A DNA stretch of 64,000 nt from an uncultured bacterium (lineage in GTDB: Bacteria; Patescibacteriota; Minisyncoccia; UBA6257; GWB1-50-10), in the NCBI GenBank assembly GCA_963768835.1, contig CAVYJB010000001.1, positions 88,420-152,419 on the forward strand, given 5' to 3'. Positions within the stretch are counted from its first letter, which is position 1. Each line of letters begins with the position of its first letter. The position numbers were made by a program, and so were the translations under genes. Positions 3,822 to 64,000 of the stretch are shown here, piece after piece. The notes under the pieces were generated by a model, which was not told the DNA's origin, did not search any database, and saw only the letters and a list, made by a program, of their open reading frames with translations.

Positions 3822-3850
3822 GATTAACCTGCGGGTTTGTTCTTCCGATC

Positions 3851-4330
3851 CTACCGCGTGACAGAGGTCGTGGCCTTCTCCGCATAGGGAGCTGCTACGG
3901 TCGTTTGCCCGCTCGAAGCGTTGTAATAAACCGTATAGCCGGTGTCATAATCCGTGGTGCTCGTGTAGTGAGCTCCCGTGGCTTTCGGGTCATAAGGCAG
4001 CCGAGGGAGATAGATTGGAACTAGGCACGGCGCGATATTGTAGGTCGTGGTGGACGCCACCGATGACATACGCCGGGTGGAGGTTGGAAGTGGCCCCGAG
4101 ACGCAGACGAAACCAGTCCGATTATCGATAATATTCTGACGAATGCCGTTCAGAATCGCATTCACATGCGCGCGTCGCTGCGTGTCGCGGGCGATGGCAA
4201 GCTGCGCTGCCCAGTTCTGAGAAAGAACCGCAATGGCAAGGAGAAGGATGGTCAGCGCGATACCGATCAGGAGTTCCGCAATACTCACGGTACCGGCTCG
4301 CGGCGTGCGCCGAGGATTCTGAGATTCCAT
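3851..4330 (-). CDS. type IV pilin-like protein
   Basis: Prepilin-type N-terminus RAG/TVSIAELLIGIALTILLLA after short leader starting MESQNPRRTP; ATG at 4330 (ORF track extension upstream rejected). Confidence 0.6.
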   Translation of the reverse strand: MESQNPRRTPRAGTVSIAELLIGIALTILLLAIAVLSQNWAAQLAIARDTQRRAHVNAILNGIRQNIIDNRTGFVCVSGPLPTSTRRMSSVASTTTYNIAPCLVPIYLPRLPYDPKATGAHYTSTTDYDTGYTVYYNASSGQTTVAAPYAEKATTSVTR

Positions 4331-19730: not shown

Positions 19731-19842
19731 ATGCCGGCGTACCCTACTTTCCCGACTCCCGAAGGAGCAAGTATCATCAGGCCTGCGCGCTTTCACTTCT
19801 CTGTTCGGAATGGGAAGAGGTGGTACACGCGCCGGTTAAACA
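19731..19842 (-). rRNA. rrf: 5S rRNA
   Basis: Minus-strand match to 5S consensus: GCGCTTTCACTTCTCTGTTCGGAATGGGAAGAGGTGG (loop C/E region) and helix I ends; ends approximate. Confidence 0.7.
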
Positions 19843-19875
19843 CCAGCAAACCGAAACCGTGGTGCGGAACTACCA

Positions 19876-23000
<3,125 letters not shown>

Positions 23001-60228: not shown

Positions 60229-60934
60229 AGTACCTCTTTATGCCATCCGCACTAGTGATTATATATACCTCAGGCTTTTCAATCTTTTCTATTTTATATC
60301 GATCACCAACCATAAGAATCGCGCCTTTCACTTTAATTTGGCTAAAATCGTTTTTCATGAGCCACTCTTCAAGTGCCTCGTTGTGATACGCAGCTTCTCT
60401 AACGGGGCTTTTCCATCTTCCCAGCTGGCAATAGCAGGTATTACCATCGGGGTATCTTGAGATCTTATACACCTCGCTTTCGATGAAACGGTATTCGCCA
60501 GATAGGTTCTTGACCTCAATGGTGATAATTCCCTTCGGCCCAACGACAATGGCGTCAATATCAAATCTCTTACCGGGAATCTTAAAGTTTCTGTATAACC
60601 GATAGGAGCTACCAAGCATTTCGAGAAGTCGCTTAAACGCCTTTTCCTCTCCTAGGTTCCCTTTCAAGGCATTTTGAAGGTTGTACTTCGCCCTATCTAA
60701 CAAGTCGTCGAGCTTATGAAGTAACTTAGTTTCACCCAGTGTTATCAGGACACCCAAGAGTATGCCTATGGCACCTATCGTTGCTTTTTCATCGAGCCAG
60801 AGTTTCCGAGAGACAATATCTCTAATGCTCCAATTAAGCGCGAGGTAAGATAAGAAACCGAGCGCAAGTATAGTAACGATAATTATAAGTGCGTTCTTTA
60901 TTATTTGTCTTTTAGAAAACGATAATTTGAGCAT
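60152..60934 (-). CDS. NERD (nuclease-related domain) membrane protein on AT-rich island
   Basis: Two N-terminal TMs then NERD-like region GNLGEEKAFKRLLEML...RFDIDAIVVGPKGIITIEVKNLSG; local GC far below window average. Confidence 0.6.
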   Translation of the reverse strand: MLKLSFSKRQIIKNALIIIVTILALGFLSYLALNWSIRDIVSRKLWLDEKATIGAIGILLGVLITLGETKLLHKLDDLLDRAKYNLQNALKGNLGEEKAFKRLLEMLGSSYRLYRNFKIPGKRFDIDAIVVGPKGIITIEVKNLSGEYRFIESEVYKISRYPDGNTCYCQLGRWKSPVREAAYHNEALEEWLMKNDFSQIKVKGAILMVGDRYKIEKIEKPEVYIITSADGIKRYFDDTFEDSRFTPEFCAKLNELLEKY

Positions 60935-61129
60935 TGATGTTTAGCTCGATAGGTCTTTTATACTTGCGTGCCTTGGATTCAAACTCATCTAAATGCTAGA
61001 CCGCCTGTCGGAAATGACAAGCGGTTTAGCACATTTGTAGGCCTCTCGCATGGGGTACCCACACAGGCGAGACACCGTAAGGACCCCTTAAGGATGGCCG
61101 AGGAGGTCCGACGACGCAAGGGGGTCGGG

Positions 61130-61590
61130 GCCTGAAATGTAACATGTAACAAATGTAACACGACGTGCAAGGTTCGGGGAACGTCGCTTTTTCGGGAGAT
61201 TACCGACTAAGGCACATAGATCAAGGATTCTTTGATGGTCGAAGTGTAACATGGCAAATGCAACACCCGGAGGACTGTTTCCGCCTGAGCGAAAGTTAAC
61301 AAAGTTTACACAGGAAGAGACGTTAACTTTTATGCGTTAACTTTCTGAATCTTCGATGAAAATGGCACAAATGGCACTCCACGGTGTGACTTTATTGTGT
61401 GCCATTCTGGTGTGCCAAAGAGCCGCAAACCGGACAAAGCGGACACAAAAGGACGCAGTCCGGACGTGTCCCATTTGAACAGGGACGTGTCTCATTCCCT
61501 AAAATGGATGCCTGTAAAATAAGGCTTTTCTATGCAAATGAGACAAATGAGACACTTTTAGGGGGTGTTCCGATCGTGTCTCATTTTTCA
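61130..61590. repeat. noncoding region with at least nine different short direct-repeat doublets and inverted repeats
   Basis: GTAACA x3; GGCAAATGCAACA; GTTAACAAAGTTTACA; CGTTAACTTT x2; ATGGCAC x2; GTGTGCCA x2; CGGACA x3; GGACGTGTC x2; AATGAGACA x2; 11-bp inverted repeat AAATGAGACAC/GTGTCTCATTT next to RT stop. Confidence 0.6.
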
Positions 61591-62550
61591 GCCTACCAAT
61601 CCAATCCGTTTTCTGATGGCATAGGTGTTCCCGTGTTGCAGGAGCCCTCGGTAGGAGGATGCGGTCTCCGGTTTCGGGCGTCTCCCCATGCGCGTGAGCA
61701 CTCTTCGCTTCGTCGCGGTGCGAAGCACCCGATGATCCGGAAAGTGCACCCAGCCCAGGAAATCGACGCCGGAGGCGAGCGTGAGGATGGAAATCTTGTC
61801 GGGGTGAAGATCGAGCTTGAGCCGTTCGAAGAGGAATGCTCGGATCCTGGGGAGGATCTGCTCGAGTCGCGCGCGATCGTCCGAGAAAATCACGAAGTCG
61901 TCGGCGTAGCGGATGTAGTGGTGGGCGCGGAGGCGGTGCTTCGCGAATCGGTCGAACTCATTCATGTACACGTTCACGAAGAGCTGGGAGGTGAGATTGC
62001 CGAGGGGCAGGCCGATGCCAGGCCGCGTCGAGGAGAAGCTGCTGACAACGGCGCGGGCAAGCCATACAGTTCCTTCGCCCAGGTCCCGCGCAAGAATTCC
62101 GAGAAGCGCTTCGTGGTCAACGCTCGCGAAGAATTTCCGGATGTCGCACTTCAGAATCCAGCAGGTCTTCGTGTTGTTCTTGCTGGCCTGCCAACCGAAG
62201 CGCCGGAAGCGATCCAGAGCTTTATGTGTCCCCTTTCCGACCCGGCACGAAAAGGAATCGGCGATGAACTTCCTGTCAAAATGGGGGTAGAGCACGCGGT
62301 AAACGGCATGATGAAGGAGGCGGTCGCGGACGGTGGCTTTATGGATGTTCCGCGGCTTCGGATCGGAAATATTGAACGCTTGATAGCCGCCGTGCCGGTA
62401 GGTACGATGGAGAAGGTCGCGATGCAGAGAGAAGATGTGATCCACCAGGCGCAGGGAGAACTCCGCGACATCCGGTTTGTATCGCTTCCCGGGCAGGAAT
62501 TCTTGCCACGCCTGAAGTAAGTTCTCGACACTCGCGATTTTTTCAAACAT
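61588..62550 (-). CDS. diversity-generating retroelement reverse transcriptase
   Basis: RT motifs incl. YADDFVIF and DGR-type LGNLTSQ (I/LGxxxSQ); 320 aa from ATG 62550; cognate TR/VR pair present. Confidence 0.8.
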   Translation of the reverse strand: MFEKIASVENLLQAWQEFLPGKRYKPDVAEFSLRLVDHIFSLHRDLLHRTYRHGGYQAFNISDPKPRNIHKATVRDRLLHHAVYRVLYPHFDRKFIADSFSCRVGKGTHKALDRFRRFGWQASKNNTKTCWILKCDIRKFFASVDHEALLGILARDLGEGTVWLARAVVSSFSSTRPGIGLPLGNLTSQLFVNVYMNEFDRFAKHRLRAHHYIRYADDFVIFSDDRARLEQILPRIRAFLFERLKLDLHPDKISILTLASGVDFLGWVHFPDHRVLRTATKRRVLTRMGRRPKPETASSYRGLLQHGNTYAIRKRIGLVG

Positions 62551-62572
62551 ATGGATACGGAGCAACCCGGTA

Positions 62573-62583
62573 CCCCCCCCCCC
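62573..62583. repeat. C11 homopolymer between divergent RT and avd starts
   Basis: Eleven consecutive C on plus strand (G11 on RT coding strand), 23 nt upstream of RT ATG 62550 and 12 nt before avd TTG 62595; lies inside the longer listed RT ORF (encodes GGGG). Confidence 0.9.
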
Positions 62584-62594
62584 GACGGAACCAA

Positions 62595-62942
62595 TTGCCG
62601 GTAGTTCAAAAATTCGTCTCGGCATACAAGCTCTGGCACGAAATCGTTCCGGACTTTCCTAAAACTTCGCGCTATACCTTGGGCTCGAGAATCGACTCCC
62701 TTTTTCTGGAGACGATCGAACTCATTTTCTCCGCCGCCTCCGTCACCCCCGCGGAGAGGTTCGCAAGAGTGGGAATCGCGGCAGCGAAGCTGGATGCCTT
62801 GAAATTCCTTCTTCAAATTTCCTGGGAGATAAAAGCGCTGGATACCAAGAAATACATCCTGCTCTCCGAAAAACTCGACGAGGCGGGGAGGATGCTCGGC
62901 GGATGGTTACGGCAACTCTCGGAGAAAACTTCCCCGCGGTAG
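62595..62942 (+). CDS. avd: Avd-like four-helix-bundle accessory protein of DGR
   Basis: 115 aa; pattern KLWHEIVPDFPKTSRYTLGSRIDSLFLETIEL...DEAGRMLGGWLRQL resembles Avd/TIGR02436 four-helix bundle; TTG start as listed; opposite strand to RT and TR. Confidence 0.6.
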   Translation: MPVVQKFVSAYKLWHEIVPDFPKTSRYTLGSRIDSLFLETIELIFSAASVTPAERFARVGIAAAKLDALKFLLQISWEIKALDTKKYILLSEKLDEAGRMLGGWLRQLSEKTSPR

Positions 62943-62961
62943 CGCGGGGAAGGAAGCGGTA

Positions 62962-63076
62962 AGCTTCGAGAGAGCACGCAGTTGCCGTCGTTCCACCTGT
63001 TGTCATCCAGGTCGTTCGCATTCAGGTTCCACTCGCGGTCGTTCGAGTTCCAGTTCACGTTCACCGCAACCACGCG
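62962..63076 (-). repeat. DGR template repeat (TR), 115 bp
   Basis: 115-bp repeat of 63318-63432; all 22 mismatches occur where this copy has A on the minus (RT-sense) strand; translates as Asn (AAC)-rich pseudo-ORF VAVNVNWNSNDREWNLNANDLDDNRWNDGNCVLSRS. Confidence 0.85.
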
Positions 63077-63254
63077 TTCTATGCGCGACGCGCCGCCCAT
63101 GCCACCGCTCCTCGAATACTCTTGGAGCTGTATCGTATTCCGGGTCTAACCCGATAGCGCATCGCACCAGCTGACCTCTTTTATTTGTTGAAATCTCCCC
63201 GCCGGAGCCGTGACCGCAGCGATGTCGAGAAACTTCCTCTTTATTGTAACAAAA

Positions 63255-63279
63255 GACCCCGTTCATACCGAACGGGGTC
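63255..63279 (-). terminator. GC-rich hairpin plus T-tract 37 nt downstream of VR/target stop
   Basis: GACCCCGTTC-atacc-GAACGGGGTC 10-bp stem followed by TTTTGTT on minus strand; position matches DGR VR-proximal stem-loop and a rho-independent terminator. Confidence 0.6.
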
Positions 63280-63315
63280 AACACCGAGAACCCAAGAATC
63301 CGAGAATCCGAGAGG

Positions 63316-63981
63316 TCAGCTGCGAGAGAGCACGCAGCGGCCGCCGAACCACCTGTAGTCATCCAGGCCGAACGCATCCAGGCCCCACCCGCGGCCGTCC
63401 GAGGACCAGAGCACGCGCACCGCAACCACGCGCCCTTCCAACTGCACATAGAAGACGTTCGCGTAGCCGTTCATGAGGAGCGTGCCTTCTTCGCCCTTCG
63501 GTTGCTTCGTGAGCAGATCGCGGATGAGGGCCGCGAACTCTCCGGGCGTGAAGGGCTCCGGGTGTCCGAGTTCCGTGAGGATCTCGGAGTCGAGCATATA
63601 CTTCGTGAGCTTCGTCTGCGTGAGCGTGCCCTGGAACGCTTCGATGGTCTCGGGAATCAGGGGGAGCACCCACTGCTCGAAGTTGCTCCCGAGCCAGAGC
63701 TTCACAGGACCCTTCTTCCCGAAGAACGATTCCTTCGTGAAGGACTCAGTCGCTATCGCGATGCCGTCCGTGATGAGCTTCAGGGATTTCAGGGCGAGCT
63801 TCTTTGCGCCGTTCGTGCCAGCGACGATGAGTTTCGCCACTTCCTTCGCGAGACCTGTACCTGTCTTCATTCTTTCGAACATCCGTTCCTCGTTCCCCCC
63901 GAGCTTCACGACTTCCTTGTAGACTTCCGTGAAGAACTCTGCCCCGAAGAGCATGCCGCCAACCAACTTTGATTTCTGCAT
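63316..63981 (-). CDS. DGR target protein (221 aa) with C-terminal variable region
   Basis: ATG 63981 with GGAGGTG RBS; no signal peptide or TM; C-terminus ...AVRVLWSSDGRGWGLDAFGLDDYRWFGGRCVLSRS encoded by VR. Confidence 0.75.
   Translation of the reverse strand: MQKSKLVGGMLFGAEFFTEVYKEVVKLGGNEERMFERMKTGTGLAKEVAKLIVAGTNGAKKLALKSLKLITDGIAIATESFTKESFFGKKGPVKLWLGSNFEQWVLPLIPETIEAFQGTLTQTKLTKYMLDSEILTELGHPEPFTPGEFAALIRDLLTKQPKGEEGTLLMNGYANVFYVQLEGRVVAVRVLWSSDGRGWGLDAFGLDDYRWFGGRCVLSRS
63318..63432 (-). repeat. DGR variable repeat (VR), 115 bp, at 3' end of target gene
   Basis: 93/115 identical to TR; differences only at TR adenine positions; begins at target stop codon. Confidence 0.85.
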
Positions 63982-64000
63982 AGTGCACCTCCGTATGGTG

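Follow-up and report, generated by a model that had tools for sequence, protein, structure and literature searches.

A chromosomal diversity-generating retroelement of Patescibacteria in which comparison with relatives suggests a priming RNA scaffold before the template repeat

Introduction

Where could the RNA that primes mutagenic cDNA synthesis be located in a diversity-generating retroelement (DGR) whose accessory gene avd lies on the opposite strand directly after the template repeat (TR)? The question is raised by a locus near one end of a 64,000-nucleotide (nt) stretch of DNA from an uncultured bacterium (GTDB lineage Patescibacteriota; Minisyncoccia; UBA6257; GWB1-50-10; GenBank assembly GCA_963768835.1, contig CAVYJB010000001.1, positions 88,420 to 152,419). 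This whole stretch is referred to as the window, and all coordinates are window coordinates unless the contigs L001 or L002 are named. A preliminary description had proposed a complete DGR within 2.4 kb, made of a reverse transcriptase (RT), Avd, a TR, and a target gene carrying a variable repeat (VR). All four parts were found, at coordinates that were exact or a few bases off, and every DGR feature that can be tested on sequence is present, namely the RT, Avd, an adenine-specific TR/VR pair, a difference between IMH (initiation of mutagenic homing) in VR and its counterpart IMH* in TR, and a hairpin after VR. The parts do lie within 2.4 kb, but the system runs past the window edge, with a second cassette beyond 64000 and a paralogous possible second target on the same contig.

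The element is a real and apparently intact chromosomal DGR of the "B3" class of Patescibacteria, a lineage of the candidate phyla radiation (CPR). Comparison with 80 relatives suggests that its priming RNA scaffold is placed before TR, not after it as in the DGR of phage BPP-1. The principal features are as follows.

61588-62550, minus strand: DGR RT, 320 residues from the ATG at 62550; a longer open reading frame (ORF) starts at 62625
62595-62942, plus strand: avd accessory gene, 115 residues, divergent from RT and convergent with TR
62955-63076, minus strand: TR, with 30 A and nine AAC codons; its last ~12 nt are IMH*
63311-63432, minus strand: VR, covering target codons 184-221 and the stop
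63322-63311, minus strand: IMH, CAGCTGACCTCT, containing the TGA stop 63318-63316
63316-63981, minus strand: target gene, 221 residues, with GGAGGTG 5 nt upstream of the ATG

Repeats and gene order

TR and VR had been given as a 115-bp pair, with VR forming the last ~38 codons of the 221-residue target. The pair is present and VR does cover codons 184-221 plus the stop, at the 3' end of the gene where DGR VRs usually lie, but the repeat is 122 nt long, with an offset of 356. On the minus (coding) strand 24 of the 122 positions differ, 22 of them at TR adenines. Within the first 110 nt, VR departs from TR at 21 of 27 A sites vs none of 83 non-A sites (Fisher p=1.6e-17), and the 21 A-to-N changes in VR all fall at codon positions 1 or 2. 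At the three other differences (62966, 62961, and 62957) it is VR, not TR, that is the Watson-Crick complement of the primer strand described below. All 24 differences are thus explained, 21 by adenine mutagenesis and three as primer-strand/IMH positions. The resulting ends are CAGCTGACCTCT in VR (IMH) and AAGCTTACCGCT in TR (IMH*). TR contains 17 diversifiable codons, equivalent to ~7e15 protein variants with no reachable stop codon. A scan of the whole window that allowed any base at TR-A positions found no further VR.

The order of parts is the target gene with its 3' VR, TR in the same orientation, avd in reverse orientation, and RT. A search of GTDB genomes yielded 567 relatives of the RT, and the best 80 of these, at 59-70% identity and labelled almost all as Patescibacteria/CPR or unclassified "bacterium", serve as the relatives throughout. 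In all 75 related loci that have DNA upstream of RT, avd is divergent from RT and directly upstream of it. A detectable adenine-biased TR occurs on the RT strand just past the avd stop in 53 related loci, and in these VR lies 234-3606 nt (median 335) further upstream of TR; 44 loci entered the RNA and primer alignments. The preliminary description had singled out this layout as worth characterizing. The layout is real, although it is not specific to this locus: it is the published architecture B3, "TR-(avd)-RT" with reverse-strand avd, which makes up 90% of a CPR set (Wu et al. 2018, PMC5758913), and order and orientation of the parts match, with no difference in gene layout. Because the B3 layout is already published, the locus is one more example of a known DGR class. 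Its target protein, like most CPR targets, lacks a Pfam domain. Specific to the locus are a second cassette in tandem, whose RT is a 35-codon stub, and possibly a second target at a remote site. The features added here for the clade as a whole are a structured RNA 5' of TR, a post-TR terminator, a helix formed across TR, and a poly-G tract, none of which was found described in the CPR and BPP-1 DGR literature compared, a set that did not cover Paul et al. 2017.

Structured RNA before the template repeat

About 170 nt upstream of TR are conserved in the clade and in both cassettes of the locus. The elements of this region, and those that follow TR and VR, are listed below.

63074-63231, minus strand: conserved structured 5' domain of the putative DGR RNA, with H1, an A-rich strand, a primer-type strand, H2, H3, a single strand, and H4
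63168-63182, minus strand: primer-type strand AAAAGAGGT with the linker CAGCTG; the VR end (IMH) is exactly complementary to its last 12 nt
63167-63156 with 63094-63083, minus strand: H2 (12 bp), the 3' strand of which ends just before TR
63153-63141, minus strand: stem-loop H3
63140-63129, minus strand: single strand GAATACGATACA, 12 nt between H3 and H4
63128-63107, minus strand: stem-loop H4
62952-62960, minus strand: 3' strand of helix P0, ACCGCTTCC, pairing with the upstream primer-type strand across TR
62929-62952, minus strand: stem-loop CTTCCCCGCG-CTAC-CGCGGGGAAG followed by TTTTCTCC, directly after TR and over the avd stop, found in the terminator scan
63255-63279, minus strand: GC-rich hairpin GACCCCGTTCG-GTA-TGAACGGGGTC with TTTTG, 11 bp, ~31 nt past the VR end and 36 nt past the target stop

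For the 5' domain, RNAalifold gave 32 pairs, 28 of them compensatory. An explicit structure made of P0, H2, H3, and H4 was then scored by joining the upstream region to the post-TR segment in the 44 loci, aligning with MAFFT, and counting pairs: 92.3% of cells are paired, vs 72.4% in shuffled and 35-54% in slid alignments, and the covariation score is 0.665 vs 0.260, a level reached by none of 500 shuffles. Seven of the nine P0 pairs show changes on both sides across these loci, and a register scan for P0 has a single diagonal with a good score. The minimum-energy fold of this locus's own sequence reproduces H1 to H4 and the terminator.

A covariance model (R1) built from the alignment of the upstream region was searched against 1.24 Mb. 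It gave 74 matches, one per cassette and always on the RT strand upstream of TR, including ~20 loci outside the training set. The single match in the window is 63231-63074 (116.6 bits), and the model matched neither L002 nor BPP-1. At gathering thresholds no Rfam family for the 5' domain was found in the window or in 17 related loci. We also noticed a sub-threshold match of RT-9 (RF03080) to the H1 hairpin (63175-63224, minus strand; 18.1 bits vs a cutoff of 46.1), which may reflect chance or distant kinship to an RT-associated motif.

The terminator scan of 60900-64000 returned two terminator-like sites, both on the minus strand, one after the target gene and one directly after TR. The site after TR recurs in 46 of 53 relatives as against 21 of 1060 random windows, and in 0 of 53 on the avd strand. 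Of 278 DGRs that contain Avd, 207 are reported to have a stem-loop that binds Avd just downstream of TR (Handa et al.), and the hairpin here could be an intrinsic terminator and an Avd-binding stem-loop at once. The hairpin at 63255-63279 is, by analogy with the stem-loop 3' of IMH that enhances homing in BPP-1, a candidate homing-enhancing stem-loop as well as a putative terminator of the target gene.

Complementarity of the putative primer strand to IMH

The reverse complement of AGAGGTCAGCTG (63179-63168) is CAGCTGACCTCT and matches the VR end 63322-63311 at 12 of 12 positions, where TR has AAGCTTACCGCT; the primer strand of the second cassette matches its own VR2 at 13 of 13. The A at 63172 is nearly invariant in the clade. 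In the 44 loci the TR flank is paired with the upstream strand from position -7 to 0 and mismatched to it at +1 (paired in 3/44) and +3 (paired in 8/44). Positions +1 to +6 of the VR flank are paired with the upstream strand in 31-43 of 44. Where TR and VR disagree within the linker (114 positions), the Watson-Crick complement of the strand is the VR base in 88 cases, the TR base in 12, and neither in 14. A Watson-Crick run of at least 5 from +6 is found for 31 of 44 VRs vs a single one of 44 TRs.

The same relation exists in BPP-1, in which spacer (Sp) positions Sp48-56, AGGTGGTCA, ending at A56, the experimentally known priming nucleotide, are a perfect 9-bp complement of VR 118-126, while TR opposite Sp48-56 has two mismatches and one wobble. 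This complementarity between primer strand and IMH was noted, and pairing of the cDNA-linked RNA primer with IMH proposed, by Naorem et al. 2017, so the pairing principle is not new. What is new here is its covariation in a distant clade and the use of the primer-IMH signature to place the primer strand 5' of TR.

A proposed permuted RNA and its mechanism

The clade order is H1, A-rich strand, primer strand, 6-nt linker, H2 5' strand, H3, 12-nt single strand, H4, H2 3' strand, TR, P0 3' strand, and terminal stem-loop. In BPP-1 the order is upstream strand, TR, Avd stem-loop, primer strand, strand of the stop duplex, short stem-loop, single-stranded thumb ring, and bRT stem-loop. From the anatomy of the elements and their covariation we infer that one RNA is a circular permutation of the other; such a permutation would account for the position of avd, antisense and directly after TR.

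On this model TR would be made as its own minus-strand RNA of ~320 nt, running roughly from 63246 to 62925 and composed of a structured 5' domain of ~160 nt, TR, a 9-nt strand, and a terminator hairpin that possibly binds Avd. The strand 63182-63168 would pair with the sequence just 3' of TR, such that TR is looped out beside the 12-bp H2. By analogy with BPP-1, RT-Avd is predicted to prime cDNA from a nucleotide near 63168-63172 and to start copying at G 62967, the predicted first templated base, with misincorporation by RT opposite TR adenines. The RNA-linked cDNA would then be guided to VR by the primer strand, as this strand is an exact 12-nt complement of IMH and is mismatched to the IMH* of TR. 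The same RT may also serve the adjoining RT-less cassette and the remote paralog.

Much of this is shared with BPP-1: a homologous RT (151.6 bits), Avd, adenine-specific mutagenesis at AAC codons, an IMH that differs from IMH*, a hairpin after VR, a primer strand with perfect complementarity to IMH and mismatches to IMH*, a duplex beside the template:primer duplex that loops TR out, and a stem-loop immediately 3' of TR. The differences concern arrangement and setting. The avd gene is on the opposite strand here, unlike in the BPP-1 order mtd-avd-TR-brt; the primer strand, stop-type duplex strand, stem-loops, and conserved single strand lie 5' of TR, unlike the 140-nt spacer 3' of TR in BPP-1; an intrinsic terminator appears to end the TR RNA; and the element is in the chromosome of a small-genome bacterium, whereas BPP-1 is phage-borne.

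Reverse transcriptase

The DGR-specific LGNLTSQ motif and the YADD motif named in the preliminary description can both be read in the RT translation; they fit the [LI]GxxxSQ motif and YxDD catalytic box of the DGR clade. Translation probably starts at the ATG at 62550, as residue 1-2 of this shorter form is where the alignments to BPP-1 bRT and the 80 relatives set in. The top PDB match is BPP-1 bRT (8ub7; 151.6 bits, E=2.7e-43), whose identity with BPP-1 brt was confirmed by equal length and the same sequence fragments. The bRT residues K29, F66, R74, I76, and Q187 are identical in the aligned RT, and I181 is replaced by Leu. Pfam RVT_1 matches with 84 bits.

Alternative explanations

Taken as one joint explanation, a DGR of the B3 class with a permuted RNA and the priming and homing mechanism outlined above is, in our judgment, quite probable. 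The alternative that touches its central part is that the upstream structured RNA is a leader, a regulatory element, or a separate small RNA, the DGR RNA itself being BPP-1-like, with a spacer 3' of TR that is antisense to avd and co-transcribed with RT. In BPP-1 all priming elements except 20 nt are indeed 3' of TR, and Handa et al., whose search covered only 40 nt upstream of TR and 100 nt downstream, report that elements like those of BPP-1 occur downstream of TR in CPR DGRs; if real, these would conflict with the permuted arrangement. Several further points weigh against the joint explanation: the TR hairpin is followed by a short T-run (TTTT), a promoter scan found no sigma-70-like site on the minus strand upstream of the 5' domain, only 6 of the 9 consensus pairs of P0 form at this locus, the VRs are identical in two assemblies of the locus, which may share one sample, with no heterogeneity seen, and the transcript ends, the priming nucleotide, and current activity are predictions. 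A separate upstream RNA would nevertheless leave aside that a helix with compensatory changes joins the upstream strand and the segment immediately 3' of TR, that this strand has the signature of a primer strand (Watson-Crick to IMH and not to IMH*), that the terminator-like hairpins after TR, in 46 of 53 loci, are confined to the TR strand, and that the region 3' of the TR hairpin is avd coding sequence on the other strand. We therefore consider this alternative unlikely. Whether the permuted RNA, with a thumb-ring-like single-stranded segment 5' of TR, extends to the B3 class of Patescibacteria as a whole, with the primer-IMH covariation in 44 loci as evidence that IMH is recognized by base pairing, is a wider claim, to which we would give about even chances.

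The element could also be a decaying DGR that is no longer active, its TR/VR differences being a record of past homing. Such a reading would fit the identity of VR1 in both assemblies, the mere 35 RT codons kept by the neighboring upstream cassette, and the seven non-A differences from TR1 in the VR of the paralog P0010, and Wu et al. caution against reading function from sequence alone. Yet the RT, Avd, and target ORFs are intact and catalytic motifs are kept, the RNA of the locus scores 116.6 bits with the covariance model, and the primer strand complements IMH without a mismatch over 12 nt. The absence of non-A differences between TR1 and VR1 (0/83) argues for recent homogenization and, together with intact ORFs and intact RNA elements, makes recent activity of the DGR likely; loss of activity seems improbable to us. 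Far more remote is the idea of a retron, group II intron, or defense-associated RT, with the repeat pair being an ordinary duplication. The preliminary description had regarded an RT grouping with retron or group II clades as the outcome that would overturn it, and the top NCBIfam model is in fact a group II RT/maturase (TIGR04416), with weaker Drt and retron matches and no DGR-specific RT model returned. These scores are all far under their cutoffs (135.1 bits vs 300 for TIGR04416 and 48 bits vs 235 for retron St85 RT; Drt is likewise far below), and among solved structures bRT leads by ~78 bits, the next-best match being a group II RT (73.8 bits) and group II and retron RTs reaching ~74 bits. 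No group II intron or retron RNA family was found in the window at Rfam gathering thresholds, Avd adjoins the RT, and the TR/VR mismatches have the adenine specificity given above. On the sub-cutoff scores, the lack of such Rfam RNA, and bRT as the best structural relative, a retron or group II identity was rejected as extremely improbable.

Target protein

The target is composed of N-terminal helices and a C-terminal alpha/beta domain, with the last ~38 residues diversified, and its AlphaFold model is confident, with a predicted local distance difference test score (pLDDT) of 84.4. The DGR would hypermutate the last ~35 of the 221 residues. In 29 homologs a conserved body of ~185 residues is followed by a hypervariable C-terminus, in which the invariant or nearly invariant VR columns are V185, V186, V188, W192, W199, W211, G214, F218, and S219; in none of these does the matching TR codon have A at position 1 or 2. 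Named homologs come from Candidatus Brennerbacteria and Jorgensenbacteria, and the 90% cluster of the target has a single member. The closest comparison class is formed by DGR variable proteins that adopt a C-type lectin fold (Mtd, TvpA 2y3c, and the FGE-sulfatase type), in which VR makes up the ligand-binding face. The target is unrelated to Mtd in sequence, and a Foldseek search of its structure against the PDB gave no match.

Second cassette and remote paralog

Beyond the window end, 1111 bases are known from the Logan contig L001, which has one mismatch to the window (window position = 65112 minus L001 position). They contain a second cassette immediately upstream of the target gene.

L001 1-1036: second DGR cassette, beyond the window end
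L001 1-87: VR2 end of a cut gene
L001 239-406: 5' RNA domain of the second cassette (covariance model, 145.9 bits)
L001 ~398-526: TR2, unrelated to TR1; 13 of 14 TR2/VR2 differences are at adenines
L001 540-887, minus strand: intact avd2 (bAvd, 52.4 bits), 60% identical to avd1
L001 929-1036: RT gene truncated to 35 codons
L002 8177-8860: P0010, a target paralog with 56% identity, on the same 353-kb contig and outside the window

The second cassette is either served in trans by RT1 or a recent relic. A smaller claim is that one RT may serve two cassettes with different Avds, TRs, and targets. L001 breaks inside VR2, which could reflect read heterogeneity at VR or confusion of the TR and VR repeats.

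The VR-like end of P0010 matches TR1 at 76 of 83 non-A sites (92%) and differs from it at 17 of 27 A sites (p=3.5e-8); its IMH, CAGCTGACCTCT, and the hairpin downstream are the same as those of the target VR. It is a possible remote second target, for which very recent homing is unlikely because of the seven non-A differences. No RT, avd, TR, or RNA domain was found near P0010, and genes for phage Mu Gam, NlpC/P60, and peptidase C39 are located just downstream of it.

Second cassettes or second VRs were also observed in several relatives: L010 (10287-11136) and L046 (16667-17261, minus strand) have a second RNA domain and TR, L072 (17771-19796) carries an additional RT that is more distant and is paired with a TR/VR of its own, and L023 has two VRs (579-705 and 3841-3967) for one TR.

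Avd and the avd-RT spacer

Avd is an accessory protein of most, though not all, DGRs. The 115-residue gene proposed as Avd-like matches Pfam bAvd with 55.4 bits (cutoff 40), while the NCBIfam model DivGenRetAVD (NF033474) gave 69.2 bits, under its cutoff of 80; there was no PDB match at the sequence level. Over 2869 bases the two assemblies of the locus differ at 62615 only, where Avd codon 7 reads Phe or Leu. One further feature lies in the 44-bp spacer that separates the starts of the divergent avd and RT.

62574-62584: homopolymer C11 on the plus strand, G11 on the RT strand

Of 75 related loci, 63 have a run of 8-14 G/C (mode 10) in the spacer, kept although such runs are prone to slippage. 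The run is a candidate promoter element, phase-variation site, or RNA element.

Other features of the window

All eight matches to AAATGNNACA in the window, where ~1 is expected by chance, fall within 61135-61586, a 450-bp region downstream of the RT stop, arranged as tandem pairs and inverted copies (TGTAACA, ATGGCAC, ATGAGACAC / GTGTCTCATT). No ORF explains the cluster at 61135-61586. In the 650 nt downstream of RT in 74 relatives there were no matches in 73 and one match in the remaining one; the cluster was dropped as a DGR part because the relatives do not have it.

The window is chromosomal and carries 23S and 5S rRNA genes and five tRNAs, and the neighbors of the DGR are ABC-ATPase, MFS, PAP2, and NERD genes. 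The 23S rRNA gene (19732-22999), which adjoins 5S, spans 3103 nt vs a model of 2925 positions and, because of this excess, probably carries an insertion. No 16S gene was found in the 64-kb window. Insertions in 23S and the absence of a linked 16S are both frequent in CPR genomes.

Significance

The locus adds one intact DGR to the many in CPR bacteria, with a small target family and up to ~7e15 variants. The comparative results on the DGR RNA are offered as hypotheses, and they propose, for the DGR class that is largest and least studied, a specific RNA architecture that can be tested, with coordinates for the primer strand, the predicted cDNA start, and the terminator. They also give independent covariation support for an RNA primer that guides cDNA to IMH. 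If true, the evidence for base pairing at IMH bears on the cDNA integration step of retrohoming, which a 2026 paper terms incompletely understood, and the compact, self-contained TR RNA of ~320 nt, if real, would be useful for engineering mutagenesis tools based on DGRs.

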